This document shows, one piece after another, positions 8,677-62,988 of a stretch of 64,000 bases of DNA. The notes beneath the pieces were generated by a model that saw nothing but the letters and a program-made list of their open reading frames with translations, was not told the DNA's origin and made no database searches. The position numbers and the translations under genes were made by a program. Source of the stretch: Candidatus Micrarchaeia archaeon (GTDB taxonomy: Archaea > Micrarchaeota > Micrarchaeia > Anstonellales > J096); NCBI GenBank assembly GCA_041500865.1, contig JBGQMY010000004.1, positions 860 to 64,859 of the forward strand, read 5' to 3'. The number at the start of each line of letters is the position of its first letter. Positions within the stretch are counted from its first letter, which is position 1.

Positions 8677-8691
8677 AATATCACTTTGTAA

Positions 8692-9624: not shown

Positions 9625-9801
9625 GCTCTATTTTATGCGTCTAACTGTTTAAAAACATAGGTGCTTTATTTATAAATGACAAAGGACGGGTCTATCGTCA
9701 CGGCAAACTATAGCAACCCCATTGTCTCTCTGACCTCTCTCTTTTTAATCCAACAGCTTCTTTGACGAAACAGTCGGCCAAGCAATGAACGAGCGCGTCC
9801 T

Positions 9802-12069: not shown

Positions 12070-12114
12070 ATAAACATGGCGGGGCAAACATATTGCCTTC
12101 CGTCTAGGGAATAC

Positions 12115-13050: not shown

Positions 13051-13052
13051 AT

Positions 13053-13084
13053 CCCTATATTTGATAAATAGTGTTTTTAAATGT
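13053..13084 (-). promoter_or_regulatory. leaderless promoter cassette P1 (ACATTTAAAAACACTATTTATCAAATATAGGG on the coding strand)
   Basis: A BRE/TATA-like ACATTTAAAAA precedes ATG 13050. The cassette matches 14597-14628 at 31 of 32 nt. Confidence 0.7.
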
Positions 13085-13114
13085 GTCTTTTTTAGCCGGA
13101 AAGCAGCCTTGGCG

Positions 13115-14593: not shown

Positions 14594-14596
14594 ATG

Positions 14597-14628
14597 CCCT
14601 ATATTTGTTAAATAGTGTTTTTAAATGT
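14597..14628 (-). promoter_or_regulatory. leaderless promoter cassette P2, a duplicate of P1
   Basis: ACATTTAAAAACACTATTTAACAAATATAGGG lies immediately upstream of ATG 14593. Confidence 0.7.
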
Positions 14629-14726
14629 ATTTCCTTATGCATCATCCGATGCTGAACCCTGTGCCCTTTGGCAAGCTGCAGCCAACAAAGCCAGAAAACT
14701 TATTAACCCATCAGCAGATACTCGGC

Positions 14727-15194
14727 ATGGACGACAGAGGCTTCATGGAGGCTGCGATAGCCAAGGCAAGGAAAGGCATAACGGAAGGCCAAGGTCCCTT
14801 CGGCGCCCGCATAGCCAAGAAAGGAAAAACCGTCTCCTGCGAGCACAACAAAGTCTGGAAAAGCACGGATCCGACTGCGCACGCGGAGATGGAGGCAATA
14901 AGGAAGGCGTGCAAAAAGCTCAAGTCCATAGACCTTTCAGGCTGCACGATATATTCAACGACTGAGCCGTGCCCCATGTGCTTCTCTGCCATACACTGGG
15001 CAAAAATATCGAGGATAGTCTACGGCGCGACAATAAAAGAAGCAAAGAAATATGGTTTCCACGAGCTGGAAATATGCGTCACCACCATGGAGAAGGTCGG
15101 GAAGGAGCGCATACCCCTAAGGCCCGGATTCATGAGGAAGGAATGCGTCGCCCTTTTCAGGGAATGGAAAAAGTCGGGCGCAAAAACCTACTGA
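14727..15194 (+). CDS. CDA-fold nucleoside/guanine deaminase (GuaD-like)
   Basis: It has GPFGARI, DPTAHAEMEAIRKAC and EPCPMCFSAIHWA (the HAE...PCxxC zinc site), and overall resembles B. subtilis-type guanine deaminase. Start set at MDDRGF, 24 nt after CTTATTAA. Confidence 0.7.
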   Translation: MDDRGFMEAAIAKARKGITEGQGPFGARIAKKGKTVSCEHNKVWKSTDPTAHAEMEAIRKACKKLKSIDLSGCTIYSTTEPCPMCFSAIHWAKISRIVYGATIKEAKKYGFHELEICVTTMEKVGKERIPLRPGFMRKECVALFREWKKSGAKTY

Positions 15195-15631
15195 AGCCTG
15201 AACCCCATCCCTTTGGCTACCCCGTTCCTTTCGGAGAACCCGACGCTGGCTTCGATAGCATAGTCGATTTCGCCCTTAGGCGCGTAATGCACGCATCCAT
15301 TGGTCTTGTCGCAGGTCTCCATCATGATTATCTCGGTCACGGTTCCGCCCTTCACGCAAATCAGCTCCAAGGGAAACTTCACGTTCTGCATCCAGAATGA
15401 ATTGTTCAACCTGCCCGCTAGGCCCATCGGAAACACCATACCATAATCGTCAGGCATTGAGCTACGGAACATCATGCCAAGCGTTTTCTTAACGGCATTG
15501 TCCGCAAGCTCGCCGCCGAAGCATTTTTCCCCGAAGCAGAACCTTGCAGGGGTCGTTTTAAGCATGAGGATTACTGCAATAACAAGTATGAAAATGGCAA
15601 GAGCAGCAGCCAACGCTATGTTGTAACTCAT
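15188..15631 (-). CDS. DUF192 (UPF0127) protein with an N-terminal TM anchor
   Basis: The series GMMFRSSMPDDYGMVFPM...FWMQNVKFPLELI...YAIEASVGF fits the DUF192 pattern. It has an ATGA overlap with the upstream ATPase gene. Confidence 0.7.
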   Translation of the reverse strand: MSYNIALAAALAIFILVIAVILMLKTTPARFCFGEKCFGGELADNAVKKTLGMMFRSSMPDDYGMVFPMGLAGRLNNSFWMQNVKFPLELICVKGGTVTEIIMMETCDKTNGCVHYAPKGEIDYAIEASVGFSERNGVAKGMGFRLQ

Positions 15632-17910
15632 GCGGGGCCGGTCTCCCTCTTGTTGGCCTCGATGCCCTCCTTGAGGAGCTTCGGGAACTGCGCATCCCAC
15701 CTTTTCTGGGCCTCGCCGAAGTCAACAATCCCGTTATCGTCCTCAAGCGCGACCATCACCCTGTTGATGAAGTTGTTGCACTTGAGGAAGAAATCCAGCT
15801 GCGTGAGCTCCTTTATGCCGGTCTTTGCCGCGGCGTTGTTTATGTCAGAGAAAATCTTTCCCTTGAAGAACGCCTGCAGGACGTATTGCTCCGGCGGTAT
15901 GCCGGTCAGGTCGCTCTTCCTCTTTATGAGCGGCGGTATGAATTCGAAGCTTAGCTCCTTTGCCATCTTCTTCATGTCAATGCCGGAAAGGTCGGCTGCC
16001 TCGGCCTCCTTGTTTTTCAGGAACAGGCAGTTCAGCACGGAACTTTCCAGCGAGTTGCCCCTTTTGTAGTCAAACGTCTTCACGAACTGCTTGTTCTCCC
16101 TGTCAGACTCGTAGGCGTACCCTATGACCCTGTTCGTCCTGCCCTTCCTGCCGAACTTCACCTTGTTCAGGAAAACGTAACGGTCGGTCGCGAACATGGA
16201 CGCCGCAGGTATGCCGAAGAACAGCTCCAGCCTGTCCTTGATGTCGTCAAGGCTTTCCGCGTGCAGGTTGTACAGCAGGAACACGCCTGGCTGCGTGTTC
16301 AGCAGGTTGATTACGCCCTGCACGGCGCTCCTGCTCCTTATCTCGTTGATTACGAGCGCGGCGTCGCCCATCCTGAGCAGCGCGTTTGCCATAGAAACCA
16401 AGTCCAGCTCCTTGACGTCCTTGCCTTCCACGTCCCCTGCCGCGACCTTCGCCGCGCCTATGTGGAAGCCCCTTTTGCGGAACGTGCGGACCGGGATTTC
16501 CCATATGTCCTGTATCGGGATGATTCTCTTGCTCGGGCCGATTGCGGCAATCTCGGCGGCCGTGAAGGCCGTCTTTCCGCTCCCTTTCACGCCCAGGATT
16601 GCGCCGCTGGCGCCCATGCTCACGGACACGTCGTCATATCCGGCGAAGAACGGGGACATGGACTTGTATGCCAAATACTGCGCGTACGTGAACGGCTCTT
16701 CAGCCAGTATCCTCAGCGCGCCCTGCAGCTCGCCGAACGTCGCAGGCGGCCTTTGCAGGTGGCACCTCAGCGCCTCCCTTTTCATGACCACGTCCGCAAT
16801 CGGGAAGTTCTCGTCGAACTTTGTGCCCTTTTCCGAGAACACCATGTTTTTGAACGCCCTTTCAAGCATCTCGTAGTTGTACCTGTACAAAGACTGCACA
16901 ATCCCGAACTCCCTGCTGTCCATGTATATCGGGCTGTTCTCGCTGTCTATGTAGATGTCCGTGAGGTTGTCCTTGTCCAGCATCAGGTTTTCCAGCGGCG
17001 AGCCCATGCCCACGACCCATGCCGATGCCTCCCTTGCCATTATCAGCGCCTCCCTTGGCGTTATGTCAACGTTGTTCTGGAGCGCCTGGTCCATGAACTT
17101 GGCCTTGTACTCGTTTATCTTCAGCCCGAAAAGTATCGTGTAATCCATTGACGTGAAGTTCTCCTTTATCTGGGAGTCTATCATGTCCTTCAGCATTTTC
17201 TGCAGCGGAGGGGCCAGCCCGTCCAGCACCGGGTTGTCCATCCTGTATATCATGTAGTCCCTTTCAGGTATCTCGAATATCTGGACCTGGACCCCGAACG
17301 GCAGCTCGTATTTCGCCTTCGGGTCTTTCAGGGCAACTGCGTTATCCGGAAGGTCAAGGGAGATTGTGCTTGCGAACAGCAGGCTCTTTGTTCCTACCAA
17401 CGAAAGGAATGCGCTCCTCATGTCGCCCTTGGCCTTGACCAGCTTTATCATCTCGGTGGCTTCAAACCTTTTCAGTATCCCCGCCACCCATCCCTGGAAC
17501 GTCTGCAGGCCCTTCATGAACGCCGCGGTGTCGGGCGTCGCCTCCTTGTAGTCGCTGAGCAGCCTTGCCGCGCTTACGGGGTTCATGTACGCATAATCGA
17601 CGAATTTTTCAAGCAGCGCCTGCCTTTTCCTGTAGTTCGGGTCAGCAGTATGGCCGTATATCTCCTTCTTCATCCTTATTCCTTCAACCTGCGCGATGAC
17701 CTTTGCGTACTCGATGAGCACGCTTGCCTTCTGCGGCGGCAGGATGAACGTGATTTCCTCCTCGTAGTCTATCTCCTTTATCGGCGTGTCTGATATGATG
17801 CTGACAAGGTTCTTCAAATGGTAGTTTATGAATTCCGGAGACCCGAATTCGTACGGGCATTTAGCCAAGTCCACGATTCCCTTCGCGCCCTCTATCCTCA
17901 AGTCGCACAT
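15628..17910 (-). CDS. type II/IV secretion-family ATPase (GspE/PilB/FlaI/VirB11 superfamily) with a long N-terminal extension
   Basis: 760 aa with Walker A GVKGSGKT, a Walker B/Asp-box region ALVINEIRSRSAVQG and a His-box LYNLHAES. Confidence 0.85.
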   Translation of the reverse strand: MCDLRIEGAKGIVDLAKCPYEFGSPEFINYHLKNLVSIISDTPIKEIDYEEEITFILPPQKASVLIEYAKVIAQVEGIRMKKEIYGHTADPNYRKRQALLEKFVDYAYMNPVSAARLLSDYKEATPDTAAFMKGLQTFQGWVAGILKRFEATEMIKLVKAKGDMRSAFLSLVGTKSLLFASTISLDLPDNAVALKDPKAKYELPFGVQVQIFEIPERDYMIYRMDNPVLDGLAPPLQKMLKDMIDSQIKENFTSMDYTILFGLKINEYKAKFMDQALQNNVDITPREALIMAREASAWVVGMGSPLENLMLDKDNLTDIYIDSENSPIYMDSREFGIVQSLYRYNYEMLERAFKNMVFSEKGTKFDENFPIADVVMKREALRCHLQRPPATFGELQGALRILAEEPFTYAQYLAYKSMSPFFAGYDDVSVSMGASGAILGVKGSGKTAFTAAEIAAIGPSKRIIPIQDIWEIPVRTFRKRGFHIGAAKVAAGDVEGKDVKELDLVSMANALLRMGDAALVINEIRSRSAVQGVINLLNTQPGVFLLYNLHAESLDDIKDRLELFFGIPAASMFATDRYVFLNKVKFGRKGRTNRVIGYAYESDRENKQFVKTFDYKRGNSLESSVLNCLFLKNKEAEAADLSGIDMKKMAKELSFEFIPPLIKRKSDLTGIPPEQYVLQAFFKGKIFSDINNAAAKTGIKELTQLDFFLKCNNFINRVMVALEDDNGIVDFGEAQKRWDAQFPKLLKEGIEANKRETGPA

Positions 17911-19873: not shown

Positions 19874-19915
19874 ACAGTAGTTTTGTCCGGCTTGTTTTAA
19901 AGAGTTGCTATTGCG

Positions 19916-19944
19916 TTTTAAACTGTTTTGGGCATAATAAGGCT
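19916..19944 (+). promoter_or_regulatory. ankyrin-family leaderless promoter (TTTTAAACTGTTTTGGGCATAATAAGGCT)
   Basis: The TATA box starts 29 nt upstream of ATG 19945. It is related to the cassette upstream of 62338. Confidence 0.6.
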
Positions 19945-20421
19945 ATGGAGCAGCGGCATAAGGAAAGGAGCCAAAAACCAAAGCTGCGCGAGCGCACAAG
20001 GCAGGTGCTGGCATCGGCTGCGCGGTCAATAAAGAGGGCGTTTGCCGGAAGAAGACTTGACAATGCGTTCTTCAGGGCCGTGCGGAATGGCGACAACGCG
20101 GAGATAAGGCGGCTCATAAAGGCCGGAGCCGACATCGCCGCAAAGGGCGATTTTGGCTGGACAGCCCTGCACTATGCCGCAAACAACGGACATGTCCAAA
20201 CCTGCGCCCTGTTAACAAGAGAATACGCGAAAGCCGGCGGAGACATAAAAGAGCTAATCGCCATAACGGATGCTTTTGGCTGGACAGCCCTGCGCCGTGC
20301 CACAAAATGGAGATATGCCCAAATCGCGCAGTTATTCAAATCCATGCCGCTATTGCAAGGCTGGGTTGGGAAGGAAACGTTCAGCTCGTTCATGGAATCG
20401 TTCGGGGAATGTGTTTCCTAA
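19945..20421 (+). CDS. ankyrin-repeat protein, family member a (C-terminal Cys tail)
   Basis: It has GWTALHYAANNGHVQTCALLTREYAKAGGD and the tail FSSFMESFGECVS. Start moved to MEQRHK, because the ORF-track extension runs through the promoter. Confidence 0.85.
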   Translation: MEQRHKERSQKPKLRERTRQVLASAARSIKRAFAGRRLDNAFFRAVRNGDNAEIRRLIKAGADIAAKGDFGWTALHYAANNGHVQTCALLTREYAKAGGDIKELIAITDAFGWTALRRATKWRYAQIAQLFKSMPLLQGWVGKETFSSFMESFGECVS

Positions 20422-20480: not shown

Positions 20481-23198
20481 ATGGCGAAAAAAACCCTGGA
20501 GCAGGTGAGGGTCAAGGCCCTCATAAGGCAGGTCCAGTCAAACGATTCCGCGCTCGGCGCCATAATAACGTACCTTGCGTGCATCTCCATTCTCTTCGCG
20601 ATATACTTCTATCCCGTCTACCTGATACCGTTCCTTGCGCTGATTCCGGCATTGCTTTCATACAAGTTCCATCCTGGCATCGGGCTTACGGCAACCTGGC
20701 TCATCGCATTGCCGGCATTTGCGTTCCAGAGCGCGGTTTTCGCCTGGGTCGGCTCGATATTCCTTATCGTCGTGCTTTACACTGCTGCCGACCATTGGGC
20801 GACCATATCGCTTGCCACGATAGCGGTGTTCCTGCCTTTTGCGCCGTTCCCGCTCTCGTTCCTGGGGGGCTTCATCTACCTCGTCCTGCTTGTGGGCGGG
20901 ATGTACCTTGGCTCAAAGGAAAGCATGCCGTTCACCGTGACGACAGTATTGCTCATATTATTGGCAAGCGCAACGTGGAACGTGCCGAACTCGGCGCATT
21001 TCCCGCTAAATCCCGCAAGCAATTTCCAGACAAACGACTATCTGCTGCGCGCGACAGACATACCGTTTTATTACTCTGACTTCCTTCCTGCCTACTCCAA
21101 GGCGATATCCAACCTGGTCAACTTCGGGGCGGCAATGAACTTCGGGAACACGCTGGGCGTTTTGTGGCACAACCTGATGGTCATATGCTTCGGCGACACA
21201 GGGCTGATGCAGGCGCTGTCATGGATGGCGGTCATCTGGTCGGCAGTGTACTTCACTGGCAGGCCGCTTGTCCGCCTTCCGATGATGCTGCACAAGAAAG
21301 TGGAAATGTCGTTCCTCTTCCTGCTGCTGATTCCCGTGATTTACACCATTTTCTATGCGCTTGACAACAGCCCGTACCTGATAGAGATGCCGATATACGC
21401 CGTGGCCAGCATACTGGTCGCGCAATGGATGATGAACAACAAGATAATGACGTTCAAGGAGCTTGAGATAAGGAGCCATGAGACAGAGAAAAAGTTCGGG
21501 ACAACTGCGGTGCAGGAGATGTCCCTCAGCACAGACGTGCAGAGCATGGAGGATTTCGCCAACTACGAGGAGACGAAAAAGGAAATTTACAATTCAATAG
21601 TGATTCCGCTGCAGAAGCCGGAAATATCCATCGCATACAATATCAATCCGCCAAAAGGCATCCTGCTTTTCGGGCCCCCGGGAACCGGAAAAACGTTTTT
21701 GATGAAGGCGCTGAGCAAGAAACTGGACTACAACATGCTTTACATAAAGACGTCGGACCTGCTCAGCTCCCTGTACGGCGAAAGCGAGAAGAACGTGAGC
21801 AAGATATTCCAGAATGCGAAAAAGACGGCCCCATGCATACTTTTCTTCGACGAGATAGACGCCATAGGCAAGAAGCGCTCCAGCGAGGACTATGTGACGT
21901 CAAGGGTGCTGGACACCCTGCTGGTCGAGATGGACAACACAATGTCAAAGCCAGGCAAGCCGGTCATATTCGTGGCTGCGACCAACGTGCCCCAGCTGAT
22001 AGACAGGGCGTTCATGAGGCCCGGCAGGATAGACAAGATAATATACATGCCGCTGCCGGACAGGCACGGCAGGGAGGAAATCTTCAAGGTCAAACTGAAG
22101 GGACTTCCGATTGCCGATGACGTTGACCCTGGCAAGCTTGCCGACGAGACGGACAGGTTTTCGGGCGCCGACATAACGCTGGCAGTCCAGGAGGCGAAAG
22201 GAAGGGTGGTTGACAACCTAACTGAAAAGCTCACTGAGGACCAGCCGGCAAAGGGCGAGATAGAGCTTATAACGATGGACGACCTGCTTTCGGCGGCGAA
22301 GTCGATAAAGCCGTCCACGTCGTTTTCGGACCTGGAGGCTTACGAGAAATTCCAGTACGACTTTGAAAGGAAGAGGAAGAAGGAGACCAAGAAGGAGGAA
22401 GGCGCGATTGACTTCAAGGACGTCGTCGGCATGGACGACGTCAAGGAAACGCTCAAGCAGTCGCTTGAGCTTCCGATAAAGCACCCTGAGCTGATAAAGG
22501 AATACAGGATTGAGGTTCCAAAGGGCATACTGCTTTTCGGGCCTCCCGGAACGGGAAAAACCTACCTTGCAAAGGCAGCAGCAGGCGAATTCAAGATACC
22601 CATACTGCTTGTCAGCGGGGCAGACCTGATGAAAAAAGGGCCGTCGGCCGCAGCTGAAGAGCTGAAGACGATATTCAACAGGGCAAGGGAGAACCCGCCG
22701 GCAATAGTGTTCATAGACGAGCTGGAGACAGTGGCGCCCCTCAGGGGCTCTTCAGACATCATAGTCGGCCAGCTGCTCCAGGAGATGGACGGCTTGGCAA
22801 AGAACAGGAACATCATGGTCATAGGCGCAACCAACATGCCGCACATGGTTGACACTGCGCTGCTCAGGCCAGGCAGGTTTGACAAGATAATATACGTCAG
22901 CCCATCGGACCTTGCGGCAAGAAAGGACCTTTTCAAGATGTACATGGCGCCGTTTGAGAAGGGGCTGGACCTTGCGGCGCTCGCCAAGAGCAGCGACGGC
23001 TTCTCGGCCGCGGATGTAAAGTCCGTATGCTCGGAAGTGAAGATAGACGCCGCAAAGGAAAAGATAAGGGGCATGGGCCAGCCGTCCATCACGACGGAAA
23101 AAGTGATGGCGAAGCTGGTCTCAAGGAGGCCGTCAATAACCCAGAACATGCTCAGGGAGTTCGAAAGGTTCATGCAGGAGTATGGCGAAAGAAGGTGA
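20481..23198 (+). CDS. membrane-embedded tandem AAA+ ATPase (CDC48/VCP-like D1-D2 with an N-terminal domain of about 10 TM helices)
   Basis: 905 aa. Residues ~20-330 are strongly hydrophobic and multi-helix. Two AAA modules follow: PPKGILLFGPPGTGKT...LFFDEIDAIG and VPKGILLFGPPGTGKT...VFIDELETV. Confidence 0.85.
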   Translation: MAKKTLEQVRVKALIRQVQSNDSALGAIITYLACISILFAIYFYPVYLIPFLALIPALLSYKFHPGIGLTATWLIALPAFAFQSAVFAWVGSIFLIVVLYTAADHWATISLATIAVFLPFAPFPLSFLGGFIYLVLLVGGMYLGSKESMPFTVTTVLLILLASATWNVPNSAHFPLNPASNFQTNDYLLRATDIPFYYSDFLPAYSKAISNLVNFGAAMNFGNTLGVLWHNLMVICFGDTGLMQALSWMAVIWSAVYFTGRPLVRLPMMLHKKVEMSFLFLLLIPVIYTIFYALDNSPYLIEMPIYAVASILVAQWMMNNKIMTFKELEIRSHETEKKFGTTAVQEMSLSTDVQSMEDFANYEETKKEIYNSIVIPLQKPEISIAYNINPPKGILLFGPPGTGKTFLMKALSKKLDYNMLYIKTSDLLSSLYGESEKNVSKIFQNAKKTAPCILFFDEIDAIGKKRSSEDYVTSRVLDTLLVEMDNTMSKPGKPVIFVAATNVPQLIDRAFMRPGRIDKIIYMPLPDRHGREEIFKVKLKGLPIADDVDPGKLADETDRFSGADITLAVQEAKGRVVDNLTEKLTEDQPAKGEIELITMDDLLSAAKSIKPSTSFSDLEAYEKFQYDFERKRKKETKKEEGAIDFKDVVGMDDVKETLKQSLELPIKHPELIKEYRIEVPKGILLFGPPGTGKTYLAKAAAGEFKIPILLVSGADLMKKGPSAAAEELKTIFNRARENPPAIVFIDELETVAPLRGSSDIIVGQLLQEMDGLAKNRNIMVIGATNMPHMVDTALLRPGRFDKIIYVSPSDLAARKDLFKMYMAPFEKGLDLAALAKSSDGFSAADVKSVCSEVKIDAAKEKIRGMGQPSITTEKVMAKLVSRRPSITQNMLREFERFMQEYGERR

Positions 23199-26718: not shown

Positions 26719-27009
26719 TCACCTCTTCTTCTTGCCTTTCTTCTTCGCTGCCTTTTTCTTTCCCCTCTTTCTCTTCCTCTTGGCGCCTTTCCTGCCGCCC
26801 CTGTTCATCTTCGCCTTGTACACATATCCGTCGTTCCCGACGTAATACAGATATCCGGCCTGCTTGCTCACCTTGGCGCTGCCCACCTTCTTCTTCCTTC
26901 CGCCGGTGTTGTGCTTCATGGGTACGGCCCAGACGCATCCGTCGCTTCCTACGAAGTAGAGATATCCCTTTTCCCTACTTATCTTTTCATTTCCTATTTT
27001 TTCTGCCAT
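26719..27009 (-). CDS. small basic protein with two GYLY[FY]VG[SN]DG.V[WY] repeats and a Lys/Arg tail
   Basis: 96 aa: MAEKIGNEKISREKGYLYFVGSDGCVWAVPMKHNTGGRKKKVGSAKVSKQAGYLYYVGNDGYVYKAKMNRGGRKGAKRKRKRGKKKAAKKKGKKKR. Start set at the MAEK ATG with an SD-like GGGGTG upstream. Confidence 0.65.
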   Translation of the reverse strand: MAEKIGNEKISREKGYLYFVGSDGCVWAVPMKHNTGGRKKKVGSAKVSKQAGYLYYVGNDGYVYKAKMNRGGRKGAKRKRKRGKKKAAKKKGKKKR

Positions 27010-27256
27010 TTTGTATACACCCCTAATTTTTCTTCTGTTCGCATTTTGCGTTCCCCTCTTTTTAAACTTTGTCCCCGTCAACCCGACAATCCTACGAATA
27101 CAGTTGTTTTTAGTGTTGGTAGCTCGTTGTTTTACGTCGGTTTTCGGTTTTTTTAACGTCGATCCTTTTTCTTTAGAAAAGAAAAAGTCTTCACCCCAAA
27201 AGAAACTACTTTAGGCGCTGCTGCGCCACGACGTGGGATTGCGCCATGCAGCCTGA

Positions 27257-27285
27257 TTTTTAATCCTTTGCCGCACAATGGAATC
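27257..27285 (+). promoter_or_regulatory. ankyrin-family promoter cassette (TTTTTAATCCTTTGCCGCACAATGGAATC)
   Basis: The TATA box starts 29 nt upstream of ATG 27286, and the conserved CTTTGCCGCACAAT box is present. Confidence 0.7.
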
Positions 27286-27759
27286 ATGCTGCAGAAAAGA
27301 ACTCCGGTATTTTCGCCGTTCCTGCACAAGCAGAAGAGCCTGTCCTTAAGGGCTAGGGAGCGCATAGGCGTCTTTTTCTGGGAATTCGGGCGCTATCTGC
27401 AGGACCGCTACGGCACGTTCAACAGCGACCTCCTTGAGGCAGCGGACCATGGGTATGTCGGCGCAGTTAAAGTAACATTGAAGAAAAAGGAGGTCAATAT
27501 AAACACGCGGGACAAGTACGGCAACACTCCGCTGATTCTTGCGGTCCAGGAAAACAACATCAAAGTAGTTAAAGTGCTGATTGGGAACGGGGCGGATGTT
27601 TTCCTGAAGAACAAAAACGGCGTGAGCGCACTGTCGCTTGCGTCCAGCCGCAAGCGCGCAGAGATAGCCGCTCTTCTTGTTGGGTTTTATTTGGAGAGCG
27701 TCCTTGCAGACGGCGCCAAGCCGTTTTACCATCTATTTAGAGACTGCACCGCCGCCTGA
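27286..27759 (+). CDS. ankyrin-repeat protein, member b
   Basis: It has GNTPLILAVQENNIKVVKVLIGNGADV and NGVSALSLASSRKRAEIAALL, with tail FYHLFRDCTAA. Start moved to MLQKRT. Confidence 0.85.
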   Translation: MLQKRTPVFSPFLHKQKSLSLRARERIGVFFWEFGRYLQDRYGTFNSDLLEAADHGYVGAVKVTLKKKEVNINTRDKYGNTPLILAVQENNIKVVKVLIGNGADVFLKNKNGVSALSLASSRKRAEIAALLVGFYLESVLADGAKPFYHLFRDCTAA

Positions 27760-27789
27760 TTTATAACACCTTTGCCATATAAAATGACT
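27760..27789 (+). promoter_or_regulatory. ankyrin-family promoter cassette (TTTATAACACCTTTGCCATATAAAATGACT)
   Basis: The TATA box starts 30 nt upstream of ATG 27790. It begins 1 nt after the stop of member b. Confidence 0.65.
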
Positions 27790-28356
27790 ATGCAAAAGCA
27801 GGAGCCGTTGCTGAAAAGAATCCTCAGGAAGCTAAGGCCAGCCAAGCAAAATCCCCTGCCCAGCGAGAAGCGGTATCTTTCAGCTGTAGACCAATATCTG
27901 GCAGACAGCAGGCTGATGCGTGCCGCAGGAGGAGGCGACATAAGCGAGGCTAGGCGCCTGCTGAAGAAAGGCGCGAACGTAGATGCGAACATAGTTAAGC
28001 CTGACCATGATTACATGACTCCGCTCATGTTTGCCGCACAGAATGGCCACACTGAAATTTGCGCGCTCCTTCTCGAAAATGGCGCAAACATCGAGGCTGT
28101 GGATGACGTCGGCAGGACCGCGCTCGTGATTGCTGCATGGTGGTGCCATCTGGAAATATGCAAGCTTTTGATTGAAAAGGGCGCAAGCATGGCCACAGCA
28201 ACCAACGGCATAAATTTATTTTCATATACCCATGCCGAAAACAAAAAAGAAAAAATCGAATTTTTGTCAGGGCTCATGATAGGAAGGATGGCTGGCAAGG
28301 AAGCCGCCACGGCCTTTCTTTCGGATTTCAAAGAGTGCACAGCCCCTTTCTTTTAG
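27790..28356 (+). CDS. ankyrin-repeat protein, member c
   Basis: It has YMTPLMFAAQNGHTEICALLLENGANIEAVDDVGRTALVIAAWWCHLEICKLLIEKGA and the tail FLSDFKECTAPFF. The start MQKQEP was chosen by the 29-31 nt spacing rule; ATG 27784 is the alternative. Confidence 0.85.
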   Translation: MQKQEPLLKRILRKLRPAKQNPLPSEKRYLSAVDQYLADSRLMRAAGGGDISEARRLLKKGANVDANIVKPDHDYMTPLMFAAQNGHTEICALLLENGANIEAVDDVGRTALVIAAWWCHLEICKLLIEKGASMATATNGINLFSYTHAENKKEKIEFLSGLMIGRMAGKEAATAFLSDFKECTAPFF

Positions 28357-28405
28357 AAAAAGAAAGCTGCTGCGGAAAGAAAACTACTTTAGGCGCTGCG
28401 CGCTA

Positions 28406-28436
28406 TTTTTAACACCTTTGCCGCACCAATCATATA
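28406..28436 (+). promoter_or_regulatory. ankyrin-family promoter cassette (TTTTTAACACCTTTGCCGCACCAATCATATA)
   Basis: The TATA box starts 31 nt upstream of ATG 28437. Confidence 0.7.
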
Positions 28437-29183
28437 ATGGAAAAGCGCAAATGCGGCACCAATGGGGCATTTTCAAAAGCCAAAAAAAAGCCGTTCAGAA
28501 GGATTGCGGAAAGGCTCAAGGAGACAGGCAAAAGGATAACGTCACGCTTGCTGAAGCTTGAATCAGACCCCCCTGATATACTATTCAAGATAATGGAGAC
28601 CAAAAACACGAAGCTGATAGAGGCTGCAGTTGACAGAGACACCGCAAAGATGAAAAAGCTGATAAAGAAAGGAGCTTGCGTCAATACTATGATAGAACTT
28701 GGCAAGGTGTCAGCCCCGCTCATCCATTACTGCGCCATCAATGACGCCTATCCGCAATTGTCTCTCCTGCTGGAGAACGGCGCAGACCCGTACACAAGGG
28801 ACGCGCGCGGCATGACGGCACTCATGCACGCCGCGGGGCACAGCAGTTATAACATATGCTGCGCGCTGATTGCAGACATGCTGACAAAAGGGAAAGACAT
28901 AAACGCGACTGACAACGAGGGCATGACGGCGCTGATGCACGCGGCGACGCACGCAGAGAATGACGTATGCGCGCTGTTCCTGTTGCATGGCGCAGCAGAC
29001 CCGTATGCCAAGGCCAAGGACGGCAGGACAGCCTATATCTTTGCAGGGAACAGCATGACCAGGAAGGCAATCGCGCGCAACGCCCTTGGCCCTGCCTTGG
29101 CAAGCCCCTTTTTGGAACAGATGCTCGGCAAACAGCCAGTCTCTTTCAGGGCCAATTTCCTGATGTGCATCGGCAAGGGCTGA
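28437..29183 (+). CDS. ankyrin-repeat protein, member d
   Basis: It has GMTALMHAAGHSSYNICCALIADMLTKGKDINATDNEGMTALMHAATHAENDVCALFLLHGADP and the tail FRANFLMCIGKG. Confidence 0.85.
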   Translation: MEKRKCGTNGAFSKAKKKPFRRIAERLKETGKRITSRLLKLESDPPDILFKIMETKNTKLIEAAVDRDTAKMKKLIKKGACVNTMIELGKVSAPLIHYCAINDAYPQLSLLLENGADPYTRDARGMTALMHAAGHSSYNICCALIADMLTKGKDINATDNEGMTALMHAATHAENDVCALFLLHGAADPYAKAKDGRTAYIFAGNSMTRKAIARNALGPALASPFLEQMLGKQPVSFRANFLMCIGKG

Positions 29184-29199
29184 GATGAAAAAGCCCTGA

Positions 29200-29228
29200 T
29201 TTTTAATTGTTTGCCATATGATGAGATC
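29200..29228 (+). promoter_or_regulatory. ankyrin-family promoter cassette (TTTTTAATTGTTTGCCATATGATGAGATC)
   Basis: The TATA box starts 29 nt upstream of ATG 29229. Confidence 0.6.
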
Positions 29229-29627
29229 ATGGCGTTGAGCGGGGTCGAGTTTCTGATTGCAATGGACAGGGCGGACAACCCGTCCATGCGCATTCCATTC
29301 AGGAAAGGCACGGAGAGATACAAGCGCATAATGGAATTCTCGGACACCATCATCCGCGAAAGGAGGCAAAGCCAGCTGGACCAGGATTTCCTGTACATGA
29401 TGGAATTGGGCAACGTCAAGGAGGCGGAAAGGCTGTTCTGGAAAGGAGCGGACGTCAACGCAAGGCAGGACGACGACCTTGCCTGGGGCGCAGGAGCATG
29501 GGCTGCCGACAGGAAGGGGGCAGATGCGATGCTCAATAGGATAACGCGCCTGCAAAGCCTGAGGTTCCTTGGAAAAAACGTTTCGTTGCAGTTTTACCGT
29601 TCATTCAGGAAATGCCTCGCCACTTAA
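29229..29627 (+). CDS. degenerate ankyrin-family member e (repeats eroded, promoter and C-terminal tail retained)
   Basis: Only one ANK-like helix-loop remains (LGNVKEAERLFWKGADVNARQDDD). The tail FYRSFRKCLAT and the family promoter are conserved. Confidence 0.6.
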   Translation: MALSGVEFLIAMDRADNPSMRIPFRKGTERYKRIMEFSDTIIRERRQSQLDQDFLYMMELGNVKEAERLFWKGADVNARQDDDLAWGAGAWAADRKGADAMLNRITRLQSLRFLGKNVSLQFYRSFRKCLAT

Positions 29628-29657
29628 TTTATAATGCCTTTGCCGCACAATAAAGAT
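29628..29657 (+). promoter_or_regulatory. ankyrin-family promoter cassette (TTTATAATGCCTTTGCCGCACAATAAAGAT)
   Basis: The TATA box starts 30 nt upstream of ATG 29658. The ORF-track ATG at 29634 lies inside the conserved box. Confidence 0.7.
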
Positions 29658-30398
29658 ATGCGGAAAAGGCAGCTCCAAAGGGATGCACTGGCAGGGAAAA
29701 CGGCCAAACCAAAAGCAGACATCGCGAAAAGCGAGAATCCTGCATTGTCCGAAACGGAGCAGGGGCGGCTCAATGGCGAACTCCTCCGCATTGTAGACGA
29801 TAGCTTCAAGGCTGACGCTAAAAAAGCGGAAGAGGTAGAGCGGCTCGTCAACGCAGGCGCGGACATCACAGCAAAGACGCCTGCCAACTGGACAATCCTG
29901 CACTGCGCCGCAGCCTATGGCGACATCGAAACCTGCGCATTGATTATAGGGAAATACGCGGAATCGCACAGAAGCATAAAGGATCTGATTGGCGCAAAGG
30001 CGAATGGCGATGATACGGCCCTGAAAGAGGCCGCAGTCAATGGACATGCCAAAGCCTGCGCATTGCTTATCAGGGAATACGCAAAAGCAGGCGGTGACGC
30101 AACTGAACTTATCACCGCAAAGGACGAATACGGCCAAACAGTCCTGCATAAAGCCGCGAACATCGGAAACACTGATATCTGCATTCTCCTTATGGAGGAA
30201 TACGCAAAAGCAGGCGGTGACGCAACGGACCTCATCTATGCAGAGGACTACAAAGGCAAGATACCCGTGCAGTCTGCTGTAAAATGGGGACAAACCAAAA
30301 CCAAGCAGTTCCTTGAGTCACTCGAAAAGCTTGGAGCAGCCATGGGGAACAAAACATTCAATTCGTTCATGAAATCCTTCAGCGAGTGCATCGCCTGA
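29658..30398 (+). CDS. ankyrin-repeat protein, member f (41-residue EYAKAGGD-type repeats)
   Basis: It has WTILHCAAAYGDIETCALII, DTALKEAAVNGHAKACALLIREYAKAGGD and GQTVLHKAANIGNTDICILLMEEYAKAGGD, with tail FNSFMKSFSECIA. Confidence 0.85.
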   Translation: MRKRQLQRDALAGKTAKPKADIAKSENPALSETEQGRLNGELLRIVDDSFKADAKKAEEVERLVNAGADITAKTPANWTILHCAAAYGDIETCALIIGKYAESHRSIKDLIGAKANGDDTALKEAAVNGHAKACALLIREYAKAGGDATELITAKDEYGQTVLHKAANIGNTDICILLMEEYAKAGGDATDLIYAEDYKGKIPVQSAVKWGQTKTKQFLESLEKLGAAMGNKTFNSFMKSFSECIA

Positions 30399-30418
30399 CT
30401 TTAGGCACAACCGACATA

Positions 30419-30449
30419 TTTTTAAATCATTTACCACAATTGGAAAAGC
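30419..30449 (+). promoter_or_regulatory. ankyrin-family promoter variant (TTTTTAAATCATTTACCACAATTGGAAAAGC)
   Basis: The TATA box starts 31 nt upstream of ATG 30450. The conserved box is degenerate (TTTACCACAAT). Confidence 0.6.
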
Positions 30450-31013
30450 ATGGGCAAAACCACGAAAATGCTGCTTGCGGAAATCAAAAGCGAAGGCAAA
30501 AGGCCAAATAAGATATTATTGGTGGACATCCTGCCGACCTCGGGCCCCAGATGGCACCAGAAGGTGCTGGAGCACCTTAATAATGCTTTAGTGGAGGCGT
30601 TGGAGCACCAAAGGAAGGAAAAATACAGTTCAAATTATTTCAGGAAATACAATCCAAGCTATTTCAAGCGGCTGTTGCTGGCGGGCGCAAGCCCGAACGC
30701 AAAAAGCACTAGCGGCGGCGGCACCAGGGCCCTGCAATATGCCGTGGAGTCCGGAGACATCAAAATCTGCGAGCTGCTGGTTGAAAACGGCGCAAACCCC
30801 AACCTGAAGGACAATATTGGGCTGACTTCGCTGCATAGTGCCGTATACCATAAGAAAACCAAAATATGCAAGATTCTGGTTGAAAACGGCGCAGACGTGG
30901 ACGCAAAGGACAAGAACGGCGAAACGCCTCTGGAAATGGCCAAACGGCACAAACACACTGACATCGTAAAGATTCTCAAAGCCGCAAGGGCGAAAAAGGC
31001 AGGCAGCACATGA
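30450..31013 (+). CDS. ankyrin-repeat protein, subtype 2 (member g, no Cys tail)
   Basis: It has TRALQYAVESGDIKICELLVENGANPNLKDNIGLTSLHSAVYHKKTKICKILVENGADVDAKDKNGETPLEMA. The N-terminal DILPTSGPRWHQKVLEHLNNAL module is shared with member h. Confidence 0.85.
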   Translation: MGKTTKMLLAEIKSEGKRPNKILLVDILPTSGPRWHQKVLEHLNNALVEALEHQRKEKYSSNYFRKYNPSYFKRLLLAGASPNAKSTSGGGTRALQYAVESGDIKICELLVENGANPNLKDNIGLTSLHSAVYHKKTKICKILVENGADVDAKDKNGETPLEMAKRHKHTDIVKILKAARAKKAGST

Positions 31014-31525
31014 ACAAAAACGCAGGGTTGTTCGCTGAAACCAAAAAAGGCGGGGACAGGAGACAAAACAAGATGGCGGCAGACATCCTGCCAAGCGAAA
31101 TGTTCAAATGGCATCCCAAGGTGCAGGCGCACCTCAACGATGCGCTGCTGGACGCATTTGAAACGGCAAGGGAAAAGGAATACGGCCTGAATTATTTCAA
31201 GAGGATTCTGCTGGCAGGCGCAAACCCGAATGCAAAAAACATGAGCGGGCAAAGGCCCCTGGGCCATGCCGCAAAGGCAGGAAACATTCAGCTCTGCGCG
31301 CTTCTTTTGAAGAATGGCGCAAACCCCAACCTGAAGGACAACCTTGGATTCAGGCCTTTGCATTGGGCGGCATTCTGCAACAGGCCCAACGTCTGCGCCC
31401 TGCTTCTGGTGTCAGGCGCGGATGCCGATGCGACGGACAACGCAGGCGATACGCCCATGGACGTAGCAAAGCGGCGAGGCCATGCCACAATCATGGAGAT
31501 TCTGAAGGCCGCAAAGAAAAACTGA
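31010..31525 (+). CDS. ankyrin-repeat protein, subtype 2 (member h), translationally coupled to g
   Basis: It has an ATGA overlap with member g and contains RPLGHAAKAGNIQLCALLLKNGANPNLKDNLGFRPLHWAAFCNRPNVCALLLVSGADADATDNAGDTPMDVA. Confidence 0.85.
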   Translation: MNKNAGLFAETKKGGDRRQNKMAADILPSEMFKWHPKVQAHLNDALLDAFETAREKEYGLNYFKRILLAGANPNAKNMSGQRPLGHAAKAGNIQLCALLLKNGANPNLKDNLGFRPLHWAAFCNRPNVCALLLVSGADADATDNAGDTPMDVAKRRGHATIMEILKAAKKN

Positions 31526-31560
31526 ATTTTCCTGTAGTTGAATTGCGCTTCGGTGCCTAA

Positions 31561-31589
31561 TTTATAATATCCTTGCTGCACAATAAAGC
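31561..31589 (+). promoter_or_regulatory. ankyrin-family promoter cassette (TTTATAATATCCTTGCTGCACAATAAAGC)
   Basis: The TATA box starts 29 nt upstream of ATG 31590. Confidence 0.7.
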
Positions 31590-32036
31590 ATGCAGGAAAG
31601 GAAGCAAGGAAAAATAGGGCAGGCATTCGCCAAGTCAAAAAATACAAAAAGGCACGTCAGCAAAAAAGAGCTGGAATATCTCAGCAAGGCGCTTCTCGAC
31701 GCCGTATGGTATGAAAACAAAGCAGGTATAGTGCGGCTCATAAGGAAAGGGGCTGACATAACTGCAAAGTACGGTGAATTTAGGGAGACCCCTTTGCAAA
31801 GCGCCGCAGGGGACGGATACACCAGTGTCTGCGCCCTGCTGATATCGGAATGCATAAATTCAGGCAAAGACATAATCAGATTCATCAACTCAAAAGACAA
31901 AGACGGCGACACAGCAATGAAACTTGCCGCAAAGAAGGGGCATGTTCAAACCGTGGACTTCTTCAAATCAATCAAATGGCTTGCGTATGCAACCGGAAGC
32001 GAATTCATGAAATCCTTCAGCAAGTGCATCGCCTAG
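31590..32036 (+). CDS. ankyrin-repeat protein, member i
   Basis: It has ETPLQSAAGDGYTSVCALLISECINSGKD and DGDTAMKLAAKKGHVQTV, with tail EFMKSFSKCIA. Confidence 0.8.
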   Translation: MQERKQGKIGQAFAKSKNTKRHVSKKELEYLSKALLDAVWYENKAGIVRLIRKGADITAKYGEFRETPLQSAAGDGYTSVCALLISECINSGKDIIRFINSKDKDGDTAMKLAAKKGHVQTVDFFKSIKWLAYATGSEFMKSFSKCIA

Positions 32037-53769: not shown

Positions 53770-53836
53770 CCTTTCCTTGGTTTTGCCTGCCATAAGAGGC
53801 TATTTTAAAAGGATTTCTGCACCCGTATTGATACGG

Positions 53837-53908
53837 GCCTCCATAGCTCAGCGGTAGAGCGACCGCCTTGTAAGCGGTAGGTCGTGGTTTCAATTACCAC
53901 TGGAGGCT
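53837..53908 (+). tRNA. tRNA-Thr (anticodon UGU), 72 nt, no intron, CCA not encoded
   Basis: Hand-folded. The acceptor stem GCCTCCA/TGGAGGC is perfect at 7 bp. The D arm is GCTC-AGCGGTA-GAGC. The anticodon arm is ACCGC-CTTGTAA-GCGGT. The T arm is GTGGT-TTCAATT-ACCAC. The discriminator is T. A TATA box (TTTTAAAA) lies at 53803-53810. Confidence 0.95.
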
Positions 53909-54055
53909 TTTAAAGGCAGTATAAAAAGGCCTGTCCGGGCGTGGGTTGGGCTACCCTGGCTTCCGTATAGGAAAGGCACCAAAGAACACATATGGCTATA
54001 AAAACCAACATTTAAAAACACTTATTTATATAATATGTAGCAAAATGGTGATGCG

Positions 54056-58812: not shown

Positions 58813-58862
58813 AGGACAATTTTTAAACCATTAAGTTCAATTATTGAACTTACCTGATCTGA

Positions 58863-58892
58863 TTTTTAATATCTTTGGCGCATAACAAAGGC
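58863..58892 (+). promoter_or_regulatory. ankyrin-family promoter cassette (TTTTTAATATCTTTGGCGCATAACAAAGGC)
   Basis: The TATA box starts 30 nt upstream of ATG 58893. Confidence 0.65.
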
Positions 58893-59528
58893 ATGCAGGA
58901 AAAGAGTAAACCCAAAGAGAATGCGCCAACAGGTAAATTGGCATCAAAAATGGACATCAAGCCAAGTGAGAAGCATATATTATCTAAACAAAGGCAGGAT
59001 TGGCTCAATAATAAGCTTATCGATGCCGCAAAACGGGGCTATGATGACAAGTTAATCCGGCTCATCAAAAAAGGCGCAAACGTCAACGCCAAGGACAATG
59101 ACGAACTGACAGCGCTTATGCATGCCGCAAGGGTCGGGAGCATAGAAACCTGCAAAATTCTCATTGAGCATAAAGCAAAAATTGATATGAGGAACAGGAA
59201 TGGCGATACAGCGCTTATTCATGCTGCATTAAACGGAGAGACTGAAATCTGTGAACTCCTGCTTGAGCATAAAGCCAATATTGATGCAAAAGACACTGAT
59301 GGCATAACAGTGCTTATGCATGCCGCAAGGGGCGGGAGCATTGAAACCTGTAAATTCCTGCTTGAGCATAATGCCTATATTGGGGTAAAGTCCAAAGACG
59401 GAAAAACAGCATTCATGTGGGCTATATGGCATCAACACGAAGAAACAGCAAAATTCCTGAAGCTTTATTCTATAAAAAAGATTCTGGGCAAGGCATTTCT
59501 TTCCAGATTTGACGAATGCATCGCCTAA
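58893..59528 (+). CDS. ankyrin-repeat protein, member j (canonical 33-residue repeats plus Cys tail)
   Basis: It has ELTALMHAARVGSIETCKILIEHKAKIDMRNRNGDTALIHAALNGETEICELLLEHKANIDAKDTDGITVLMHAARGGSIETCKFLLEHNA and the tail FLSRFDECIA. Confidence 0.9.
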   Translation: MQEKSKPKENAPTGKLASKMDIKPSEKHILSKQRQDWLNNKLIDAAKRGYDDKLIRLIKKGANVNAKDNDELTALMHAARVGSIETCKILIEHKAKIDMRNRNGDTALIHAALNGETEICELLLEHKANIDAKDTDGITVLMHAARGGSIETCKFLLEHNAYIGVKSKDGKTAFMWAIWHQHEETAKFLKLYSIKKILGKAFLSRFDECIA

Positions 59529-62252: not shown

Positions 62253-62308
62253 GCGCGGATATTGCGTTGATGCATTTAAAAATCTAATGGCGATTGCGTG
62301 GAATGGCA

Positions 62309-62337
62309 TTTTAAACTGTTTTTTGCATAATGGAGCT
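62309..62337 (+). promoter_or_regulatory. ankyrin-family promoter (TTTTAAACTGTTTTTTGCATAATGGAGCT)
   Basis: The TATA box starts 29 nt upstream of ATG 62338. It is close to the cassette at 19916. Confidence 0.6.
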
Positions 62338-62937
62338 ATGCAGAAAAGTAAGCGGCTCCCAAGGAATGCACAGGCAAAGGAACCGATTAAGTTCAAGGCT
62401 AGCATCATGCCAAGCGGGAAGCTGGCATTATCGGCAGAAGAGCAGAGTAGACTCAACGATGAGCTTTTTGCCAACGCATTAAATGGTAACAATGCCAATG
62501 TGACGCGGTTCCTCAAAGCAGGCGCAGACATCAAAGCAAAGGGCAATGATGGCCAGACAGTCCTGCACTATGCCGCATGCTTTGGACACACGGACGTTTG
62601 CGCACTGCTTATACAGGAATACGCAAAAGCCGACGGAGATGTAAAGCAGCTTATAACCGCAAAGGACACGGAAGGCCTGACAGTCCTGCATTATGCCGCA
62701 GCCAATATCGACACCAGAACCTGCGCACTGCTGATAAAGGAATACGCAAAAGCAGGTGGGGATATAAAGGGAATAATCAAAGCAAAGAACAATGCAGGCG
62801 AGACAGCCCATGGTTTTGCCGTAACTTGGCAACACCCTCAAACCGCACGGTTCCTTCTCGAATCCGGGGTTCGTGCGCTCATCGGAAAGGAATGCGGGAA
62901 ACTATTCGTCTCGTTGTTCAGGGAATGCATAGGCTAG
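62338..62937 (+). CDS. ankyrin-repeat protein, member k (41-residue EYAKAGGD-type repeats)
   Basis: It has GQTVLHYAACFGHTDVCALLIQEYAKADGDVKQLITAKDTEGLTVLHYAAANIDTRTCALLIKEYAKAGGD and the tail LFVSLFRECIG. Start moved to MQKSKR. Confidence 0.85.
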   Translation: MQKSKRLPRNAQAKEPIKFKASIMPSGKLALSAEEQSRLNDELFANALNGNNANVTRFLKAGADIKAKGNDGQTVLHYAACFGHTDVCALLIQEYAKADGDVKQLITAKDTEGLTVLHYAAANIDTRTCALLIKEYAKAGGDIKGIIKAKNNAGETAHGFAVTWQHPQTARFLLESGVRALIGKECGKLFVSLFRECIG

Positions 62938-62988
62938 CGCCACAGCGGCACCTAAAGGGTTTTAAAGAGTTTGAAGGGATGCCAACAT

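Follow-up and report, generated by a model that had tools for sequence, protein, structure and literature searches.

An expanded family of ankyrin-repeat proteins with a common leader, tail and promoter element in a Micrarchaeota lineage

Many small ankyrin-repeat (ANK) proteins make up the Ank effector repertoires of Legionella (Ank/LegA), Coxiella, Rickettsia/Orientia, Wolbachia and sponge symbionts, the described systems closest in kind to the genes reported here, and across bacteria ANK enrichment follows a symbiotic lifestyle (PMC3932732). For archaea, Jernigan and Bordenstein (2014) recorded any ANK protein in 11% of 133 strains, with more than one such protein in only four species (PMC3932732), and in the DPANN group Undinarchaeota ANK proteins are reported to be absent (PMC7414124). 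Here we analyse 64,000 nucleotides of a Candidatus Micrarchaeia genome (assembly GCA_041500865.1, contig JBGQMY010000004.1, positions 860 to 64,859 of the forward strand; hereafter the window), which carries eleven related genes, eight of them (g1-g8) in one head-to-tail array and three (gA, gB and gC) dispersed. They form a real, well-delimited and apparently undescribed gene family of small proteins, about 130-290 aa long, most of which combine ANK repeats with a basic N-terminal leader, a helical C-terminal tail and a family-specific promoter element.

The ANK density of the window is far above the archaeal norm. A local hidden Markov model (HMM) of the ANK unit, built from the window repeats, found 10 ANK open reading frames (ORFs) in the 64-kb window and 3 in ~1.3 Mb of control loci, which were centred on the gene for ribosomal protein L3 and came from 80 other archaeal species, the majority bearing Micrarchaeota or Micrarchaeia titles. 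This HMM picks up generic ANK units too (39 in protein P0035); one of the three control ORFs sits in the closest relative (locus L003), directly upstream of L3. These counts agree with the published survey (PMC3932732) and with the first-pass annotation of this DNA, which had called ANK proteins uncommon in archaea. The eleven ORFs it had listed are all present on the + strand, and their summed length of 6168 nt (9.6% of the window) matches its estimate of about 6.2 kb, or roughly 10%. Its statement that all eleven encode ANK proteins holds for ten, which score above the Pfam gathering thresholds (E 2e-9 to 1.7e-35), and fails for g4, which had no Pfam or NCBIfam match at E<=0.01. The AlphaFold2 (AF2) model of g4 has a predicted local distance difference test (pLDDT) score of 72.4 and is confident only over residues 35-80, an N-cap helix plus one ANK-like helix-loop; g4 is a degenerate family member, not a strict ANK-repeat protein. 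The eleven genes are listed here with their Pfam E-values, the E-values of local HMMs for leader and tail, and their orthologs (h2 to h10) in a sister-genome locus, L084, with amino-acid identity.

g1, 27286..27759, + strand: 157 aa; 1-2 ANK repeats; divergent N-terminus; tail end CTAA; Pfam Ank_5 3.5e-16; tail HMM 1.1e-6; ortholog h2, 69% identity, dN/dS 0.19
g2, 27790..28356, + strand: 188 aa; type-A leader; 2-3 ANK repeats; tail end CTAPFF; Pfam Ank 3.7e-20; leader and tail HMMs both match; ortholog h3, 72% identity, dN/dS 0.33
g3, 28437..29183, + strand: 248 aa; long basic N-terminus; ~4 ANK repeats; tail end CIGKG; Pfam Ank_2 2.7e-25; tail HMM 5.1e-8; ortholog h5, 72% identity, dN/dS 0.43
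g4, 29229..29627, + strand: 132 aa; N-cap and one ANK-like half repeat; tail end CLAT; tail HMM 6.5e-8; ortholog h7, 82% identity (the best-conserved member between the genomes), dN/dS 0.30
g5, 29658..30398, + strand: 246 aa; type-A leader; 41-aa ANK variant repeats (EYAKAGGD); tail end ECIA; Pfam Ank_2 3.6e-16; leader HMM 1.4e-17; tail HMM 2.2e-17; ortholog h8 (P0007), 78% identity, dN/dS 0.25
g6, 30450..31013, + strand: 187 aa; tail-less subfamily; leader with DILPTSG; 3 canonical ANK repeats; basic C-terminus; Pfam Ank_2 1.8e-26; leader HMM 3.7e-14; no match to the tail HMM; orthologs h9 (79% identity) and L003 176-724
g7, 31010..31525, + strand: 171 aa; tail-less subfamily; start overlaps the g6 stop by 4 nt (ATGA); Pfam Ank 7.2e-18; leader HMM 6.1e-16; 49% identity to g6; ortholog h10, 81% identity
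g8, 31590..32036, + strand: 148 aa; short basic N-terminus; 2 ANK repeats; tail end KCIA; last gene before L3; Pfam Ank_2 2e-9; tail HMM 4.7e-11; no close ortholog in L084 (best match 40% identity)
gA, 19945..20421, + strand: dispersed; 158 aa; type-B leader RTRQVLASAARS; 2 ANK repeats; tail end ECVS; Pfam Ank_4 1.3e-12; tail HMM 1.9e-16; relatives P0003 and P0011
gB, 58893..59528, + strand: dispersed; 211 aa; type-A leader; 4-5 canonical 33-aa ANK repeats; tail end ECIA; Pfam Ank_2 1.7e-35; leader HMM 3.7e-17; tail HMM 6.1e-9
gC, 62338..62937, + strand: dispersed; 199 aa; type-A leader; 41-aa ANK variant repeats; tail end ECIG; Pfam Ank_2 6.6e-20

Comparison of the window proteins with the full sequences of homologs retrieved with gC gave a common three-part plan of N-leader, 1-5 ANK repeats and helical C-terminal tail. 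The single architecture earlier ascribed to nine members is thus borne out: basic N-termini are present, and the tail is found in 9 of the 11 proteins. In the two others, g6 and g7, a basic stretch takes the place of the tail, as it does in their L084 and L003 orthologs. Leaders usually contain the linear motif KADI[LM]PSEKPALS and have a median length of 34 aa, net charge of +5 and pI of 10.4. With hydrophobic runs of at most 6 residues (95 leaders), they are not Sec, Tat or pilin-type (class III) signals, and AF2 renders them disordered (pLDDT 43-53). The type-A leader, MQERKPLxxNAQAKKxxKxKADI[LMA][PK]SEKPALSxxEQxRLN, was found by the leader HMM in 63 of the 118 tail-bearing proteins defined below; type B reads MAQRQ...RTREVLASAARSxKRLFAGRKLDN. 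At the position of g7 in locus L003, an ORF (721-1191) carries a g7-like leader, MNKTRVLETKGKPPKIKADILPSE, on an unrelated body of ~137 aa. The family of this body (P0145, P0146) occurs elsewhere without the leader, and the ORF is a chimeric gene at the array edge. We considered the leader as a modular signal on non-ANK proteins and rejected the idea, this one-off fusion being the sole case.

Many of the repeats belong to a 41-residue variant, with ...EYAKAGGDxKELIxAKD in place of the canonical ...ENGADVNAKD loop; the insertion forms an extra short helix in the AF2 model. Over 123 ungapped repeats the framework G3, T5, L7, A10, A11, L22 and A27 is near-invariant, and position 19 in helix 2, a Val in canonical ANK repeats, is Cys in 117 (95%). 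Entropy peaks (3.1-4.0 bits in the same 123 repeats) lie at positions 1, 2, 4, 9, 12 and 13. By their place in the repeat these hypervariable positions correspond to the canonical target-binding surface of ANK proteins, and we take them to coincide with the positions randomised in designed ankyrin repeat proteins (DARPins). The tail, ~35 helical residues with the consensus TAQFLKSxExLxxxMGKETFNSFMKSFSEC[VILT][AS]x, closes with the signature F..SF.EC[VIL][AS]x. In the AF2 model of gC (pLDDT 88.4), residues 1-31 are disordered, the ANK stack is confident and residues 167-198 form the helical tail; a Foldseek search of the PDB with this model returned only ANK proteins or DARPins among its top 50 matches. 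Neither leader nor tail matched any Pfam family at E<=10. Searched against PDB sequences, the leader and tail profiles gave nothing meaningful, the tail matching only ANK helices of designed proteins.

Beyond the window the family is rare. An exhaustive search of 1.84 billion (1.84e9) representative proteins with a tail-only profile at E<=1e-3 gave 123 matches, a few long ones of which aligned merely on the ANK-helix part of the profile. Pooled with the first homolog search, it yielded 118 proteins with the tail at most 6 residues from the C-terminus; they are 41-374 aa long, and ANK units were detected in 113. Family genes come from JGI (3300053059, 3300027896, 3300049913 and Ga0315274), Logan (SRR29605729 and SRR5272259), ENA (ERZ27247850 and ERZ1426844) and NCBI (GCA_041480205.1 and JBGQMB01) datasets. 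That the ~118 tail-bearing proteins trace to roughly ten datasets upholds the earlier description of the family as lineage-specific; full-text literature searches gave no description of it and no Pfam model fits its leader or tail, in line with the view that it is undescribed. These searches also found no paper on ANK expansion in Micrarchaeota or DPANN. A metagenome scan with a narrower family alignment found 15 loci, 13 of them in one metagenome, Ga0209777, where 13 contigs hold arrays of two to ten members. Fifteen non-redundant family-bearing loci contain 64 family or ANK ORFs in 206 kb, a figure that reflects loci chosen for family presence and is not a genome-wide density. In most other Micrarchaeota loci of the L3-centred set the family is absent. 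As traced so far, it appears confined to a narrow Micrarchaeota lineage and to metagenomic relatives on unbinned contigs. A viral or giant-virus origin was considered and is unsupported, as IMG/VR viral contigs contained no family relatives.

Not only the coding sequences but also the promoters are shared. In all window genes except g7 (10 of 11), a TATA-like sequence (TTTTTAA or TTTATAA) occupies about -31 to -24 relative to the ATG, and between this box and the ATG, at about -22 to -8, the same ten carry a family-specific 15-nt element, CCTTTGCCGCACAAT. No promoter element lies upstream of g7.

g1 promoter region, 27250..27285, + strand: TATA-like TTTTTAAT and element CCTTTGCCGCACAAT
g2 promoter region, 27754..27789, + strand: g1 stop codon directly before the TATA box; 30-nt spacer
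g3 promoter region, 28400..28436, + strand
g4 promoter region, 29193..29228, + strand: TTTTTAATTGTTTGCCATATGAT; repeat family D3
g5 promoter region, 29622..29657, + strand: best element match of the window, 39.8 bits
g6 promoter region, 30414..30449, + strand: serves the g6-g7 pair
g8 promoter region, 31554..31589, + strand
gA promoter region, 19909..19944, + strand: weaker match
gB promoter region, 58857..58892, + strand
gC promoter region, 62302..62337, + strand: weaker match

The stop codon of the preceding gene in several instances abuts the TATA box, which accounts for the recurring 30-nt spacers. A TATA box ~30 nt ahead of the start codon is also present at other genes of the window that come first in their operons, but their -22 to -8 segments are unrelated. 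Because the box is placed ~30 nt before the ATG, the sequence suggests that transcripts are mostly leaderless in this archaeon. To search elsewhere, a position weight matrix was trained on the window alone, from the 19-nt core with the TATA box excluded, and applied at a threshold of >=16 bits. In the other family-bearing loci (206 kb) it gave 17 matches, 16 at the 5' ends of family ORFs, as against 2 matches in 1.29 Mb of control archaeal loci. The element is far more conserved than the family coding sequences. Its position relative to TATA box and ATG is a site where archaeal repressors often bind, and we infer that it is a putative family-wide operator. A 43-nt direct repeat (27179-27221 and 28357-28399; 74% identical, ending AAACTACTTTAGGCGCTGC) lies just upstream of the g1 and g3 promoters.

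The window paralogs are merely 22-49% identical, g6 and g7 being the closest pair, so that there is no sign of recent duplication. Locus L084, from a sister genome with 98% identity in L3, has ten array genes upstream of L3, namely same-order orthologs of g1-g7 with 69-82% amino-acid identity and three extra members; h4 of this array is truncated and has no tail. All seven ortholog pairs have intact frames, with non-synonymous divergence (dN) of 0.11-0.20 and ratios of non-synonymous to synonymous divergence (dN/dS) of 0.19-0.44, whereas six adjacent ribosomal-protein genes have dN of 0.012-0.041 and dN/dS of 0.06-0.13. At non-synonymous sites the array orthologs thus evolve ~10x faster than their neighbours. 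Copy number differs between the genomes as well, with 8 versus 10 genes upstream of L3 and 1 versus 3 at the Lactamase_B/Ham1 locus. Judged from these comparisons, the family is old, kept by purifying selection and fast-evolving, with gain and loss of members. The term 'actively duplicating' used in the first-pass annotation does not stand: paralogs are divergent, 7 of the 8 array genes have same-order orthologs in the sister genome, and dN/dS is below 1 in 7 of 7 pairs. As a 31-nt stretch coding for FMKSFS[EK]CIA is 97% identical between g5 (30366-30396) and g8 (32004-32034) though their proteins are 36% identical, the tails may have undergone gene conversion now and then.

The window comes from the chromosome of a Micrarchaeota (DPANN) archaeon, with core genes such as FtsZ, Spt5/NusG and a Cdc48-like AAA ATPase and a ribosomal-protein operon in the order L3-L4-L23-L2-S19-L22-S3. 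Its L3 is 87% identical to that of the 'Candidatus Micrarchaeia' metagenome-assembled genome (MAG) JBGQMB01, the source of L003, and 71% identical to that of a Micrarchaeota MAG from Lac Pavin; almost all of the next several dozen L3 matches are titled Micrarchaeota or a Micrarchaeota lineage. DPANN archaea are mostly host-dependent, and this membership fits the earlier reasoning that ANK expansion goes with host association. The array was found again in Logan SRR29605729 (100% identity) and JGI 3300053059 (99.994% identity), and this recurrence in two independent assemblies excludes an assembly artefact. In the JGI assembly of the same population, one A of the AAA at 30372-30374 is deleted (L001, position 8786; AAA to AA), which frameshifts the C-terminal tail of g5, so that gene callers give products of 318 and 140 aa; the difference is either a polymorphism or a homopolymer error.

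The array was earlier described as abutting the ribosomal-protein operon. This is so in the window, where g8 is the last gene before L3, and is not an essential feature: in L084 a methylase/Vsr module separates array and L3, and other arrays lie in unrelated contexts. The L084 module (7043-10619) encodes a DNA cytosine methylase, an HATPase_c_3 protein and a Vsr endonuclease and has no counterpart in the window. In the window, FtsZ, ribosomal-protein genes, an AAA ATPase, an aminotransferase, DUF2207 and UbiA are the neighbours of the Ank genes. Between FtsZ and the array lies a 120-aa Lys-rich ORF (26719-27081, - strand) with a poly-Lys C-terminus and two 'GYLYFVGxDGxVW/Y' repeats; it has no match in Pfam, NCBIfam or PADLOC, and a similar ORF stands at the syntenic position of L084. 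Immediately downstream of gA, a gene on the + strand (20481-23198) encodes a Cdc48-like protein of 905 aa, which has two AAA domains and a Vps4_C-like segment. Starting 34 nt past the gC stop, a UbiA-family prenyltransferase gene (62971-63861, + strand) has PRK12884 as its top NCBIfam model, followed by digeranylgeranylglyceryl-phosphate-synthase-like models, all under cut-off; it is probably a lipid-biosynthesis gene, and its closeness to the Cys-tailed gC coincidental. A block of large ORFs without Pfam match (6823-17910; 617, 310, 755, 364 and 492 aa), where GC content falls to 0.38-0.43 at 8-12 kb, ends ~2 kb from gA. Its 760-aa ORF (15628-17910, - strand) is weakly similar to TadA/FlaI/VirB11-type secretion or pilus ATPases, and the block could encode a type-IV-pilus-like surface apparatus. 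At L083 (2253-9192, - strand), and also at L087 and L102, a conserved cluster without Pfam matches adjoins family ANK genes, its products being 1125, 124, 876 (faint AAA_22, weak PADLOC mad8) and 178 aa long. Transfer RNA and Rfam scans of the window found one tRNA-Thr (53836-53909), with no relation to the Ank family.

We favour, at a probability of roughly 40%, a repertoire of co-regulated ANK binders whose constant modules connect them to one shared partner or pathway and which most probably act on host proteins. Each paralog would grip a different target protein via its ANK groove, and the shared leader and tail would couple all members to one partner or pathway, be it for targeting, delivery, anchoring or turnover. 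The shared promoter element would place all members under one regulator. The likeliest targets would be host proteins at or beyond the site of cell-cell contact, giving the family an effector-like role, because DPANN archaea are presumed to be host-dependent and ANK expansions track symbiosis in bacteria. Several observations weigh against this reading. The leaders contain no signal peptide, and no recognisable export apparatus is linked to the arrays. Hypervariability at binding positions is typical of any ANK family and is weak evidence for host targeting. We looked for region-specific diversifying selection and saw no sign that it focuses on the ANK part, identity between orthologs being even over leader, ANK part and tail (~75-76% each). 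The conserved termini could also be purely structural, as N-cap and C-cap extensions. Finally, clustering of the gene neighbours over the 15 family-bearing loci revealed no recurrent non-family gene beside the arrays, shared synteny aside, so genomic context cannot separate the readings.

A possible, if doubtful, alternative is that the proteins work inside the archaeal cell as substrate or assembly adaptors for one machine, such as a Cdc48-type unfoldase or the proteasome, with tail or leader as the docking module. Variable targets are linked to a constant machine by gankyrin and by viral ANK/F-box proteins, and the architecture of a variable binder with a constant handle fits such a role, as do leaders without signal peptide or hydrophobic run, the setting of the arrays among housekeeping genes and the place of gA directly upstream of the double-AAA Cdc48-like gene. 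However, only 1 of the 11 genes adjoins an AAA ATPase and no machine gene recurs by the arrays, even at E<=10 no F-box or PRANC model matches the tail, and most other Micrarchaeota loci do without the family; a tenfold dN and copy-number turnover would also be unusual for housekeeping adaptors.

Rather unlikely, in our estimate, is the specific proposal that leader, tail or both are a targeting signal that routes the ANK binders into or onto the host via cell-cell contact or a pilus-like apparatus. If it is true, we know of no earlier case in DPANN of a recognisable translocated-effector family or of a candidate delivery signal. In a sub-variant of this proposal, the invariant Cys of the tail would be covalently modified (lipidated).

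The paralogs may instead be inhibitors or immunity proteins, each neutralising a different enzyme or toxin, whether a lytic enzyme of the archaeon itself or a toxin of host or competitor; this we consider improbable. ANK-type immunity proteins occur in polymorphic toxin systems. The tandem arrays would be sets of immunity genes; like orphan-immunity arrays, they consist of small, diversified genes that lie head to tail and are independently transcribed. A self-protective ANK inhibitor, Bd3460, is documented in the predatory bacterium Bdellovibrio (Lambert et al. 2015, as cited in PMC8080830). No toxin, hydrolase or secretion gene adjoins any array examined, however, and matches in PADLOC are confined to the ANK region of defence proteins. 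The proposal also leaves the conserved disordered leader, the invariant tail and the common promoter element unexplained.

The tail Cys is invariant (118 of 118 tail-bearing proteins, consensus C-[VILT]-[AS]-[AQGS]) and is followed by three residues, the CaaX-like geometry, in 82 of 118 (69%). It might thus be prenylated or otherwise lipidated by a hypothetical archaeal enzyme or by one of the host, as in Legionella AnkB, making the ANK proteins membrane-tethered scaffolds, to which the basic leader could contribute electrostatic affinity. Archaeal homologs of CaaX proteases (CPBP) exist, with no function assigned (PMC9263693), and the UbiA-family gene 34 nt past gC encodes a prenyltransferase, though of the lipid-synthesis type. 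Yet two residues follow the Cys in 26 of 118 proteins (22%) and four to six in 10 of 118; window tails have the two-residue spacing in 5 of 9 and CaaX spacing in 2 of 9, and the distance shifts even between close orthologs (CTAPFF in g2, CTA in h3). We therefore rejected a strict CaaX motif as the main explanation, the distance from Cys to end varying between 2 and 6. The second residue past the Cys (a2) is small (A/S), not aliphatic, while a1 is V/I/L/T and X is A/Q/G/S; X presumably suits the preference of farnesyltransferase and a2 does not. The residues F(-7), [MLI](-6), F(-3), C(0) and [VIL](+1) line up as a hydrophobic stripe along one helix, which the AF2 model puts in the C-cap, and the Cys may extend the buried Cys ladder of helix 2 (117 of 123 repeats). 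We saw no gene for a protein prenyltransferase among those annotated in the loci read. Given the variable spacing, the small a2, the helix stripe in the C-cap and the Cys ladder, prenylation is unlikely, and lipid-anchored scaffolds are a long shot as an account of the family.

That the genes are decaying remnants or chance ORFs in repeat DNA, as g4 without an ANK HMM match, the truncated h4 and the g5-tail frameshift in one assembly might suggest, is largely refuted by the ortholog comparison (dN/dS 0.19-0.44 and intact frames in 7 of 7 pairs, with g4 the best conserved at 82%), by the conserved promoters and by the confident AF2 model of gC, and carries almost no weight with us.

To our knowledge, very few candidate proteins have been named for the interactions by which DPANN archaea recognise and manipulate their hosts. 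The family, a sequence-defined, expanded and fast-evolving set of binders whose function is inferred, provides a concrete lead into DPANN-host biology. A host-directed repertoire would carry over to archaea the rule, so far bacterial, that ANK abundance goes with a symbiotic lifestyle. In other metagenomes, the family can be sought with two simple markers, the tail profile and the 15-nt element. For experiments, leader and tail are candidate targeting or docking signals, the element is a candidate regulon operator, and the variable ANK surfaces lend themselves to target screens.

Among known systems, the bacterial Ank repertoires share with this family many small ANK proteins in a reduced-genome, host-dependent microbe, fast evolution and copy-number turnover. 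Unlike them, the family belongs to an archaeon; its members have one leader, one tail and one promoter element, and its repeats include the 41-aa variant (EYAKAGGDxKELI) and the Cys at position 19 of helix 2. Cultivated Micrarchaeota have archaeal hosts. We saw no type IV secretion system with the family, and NCBIfam models of Dot/Icm Ank effectors (AnkX, AnkY, AnkH and others), tried as candidates, scored 17-57 bits against cut-offs of 450-1400, with alignment over the ANK region only. AnkB of Legionella pneumophila has an F-box, ANK repeats and a C-terminal CaaX that is farnesylated by the host. The family resembles it in that ANK repeats are followed by a Cys three residues from the C-terminus (69% of members), but differs in lacking an F-box, in its Cys spacing of 2-6 and small a2, and in having no known eukaryotic host. 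Poxvirus and giant-virus ANK/PRANC proteins, whose ANK repeats precede a C-terminal F-box-like domain, likewise combine a variable N-terminal ANK binder with a short constant C-terminal helical module and come in tandem multigene arrays. Unlike these, the family gave no F-box or PRANC match in a Pfam scan of 26 tails at E<=10 and has no relatives in IMG/VR; the archaeon is not known to possess SCF ubiquitin ligases.

Bd3460 of Bdellovibrio (PMC8080830) is similar in being a small cytoplasmic ANK protein of a microbe that attacks or depends on other prokaryotes. In contrast to Bd3460 and other ANK immunity proteins, the family has no adjacent hydrolase or toxin gene, conserves leader and tail, and comprises dozens of paralogs rather than one cognate pair. 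Anti-phage ANK proteins (PADLOC PDC-M72A, 'Ankyrin' and MzaA) were considered and set aside, with ~100-140 of 392-880 model positions matched and no partner genes. The best structural matches to the gC model are DARPins and consensus ANK proteins (Foldseek E ~2e-8, rmsd 2.1-2.6 A, ~140 columns), from which the family differs as a natural one with an extra 8-residue insertion per repeat in many members and its own leader and cap. ANK expansion in symbionts is thus already familiar; what is new here is the archaeal lineage, the leader, the tail, the 41-aa repeat variant, the Cys ladder and the promoter element.

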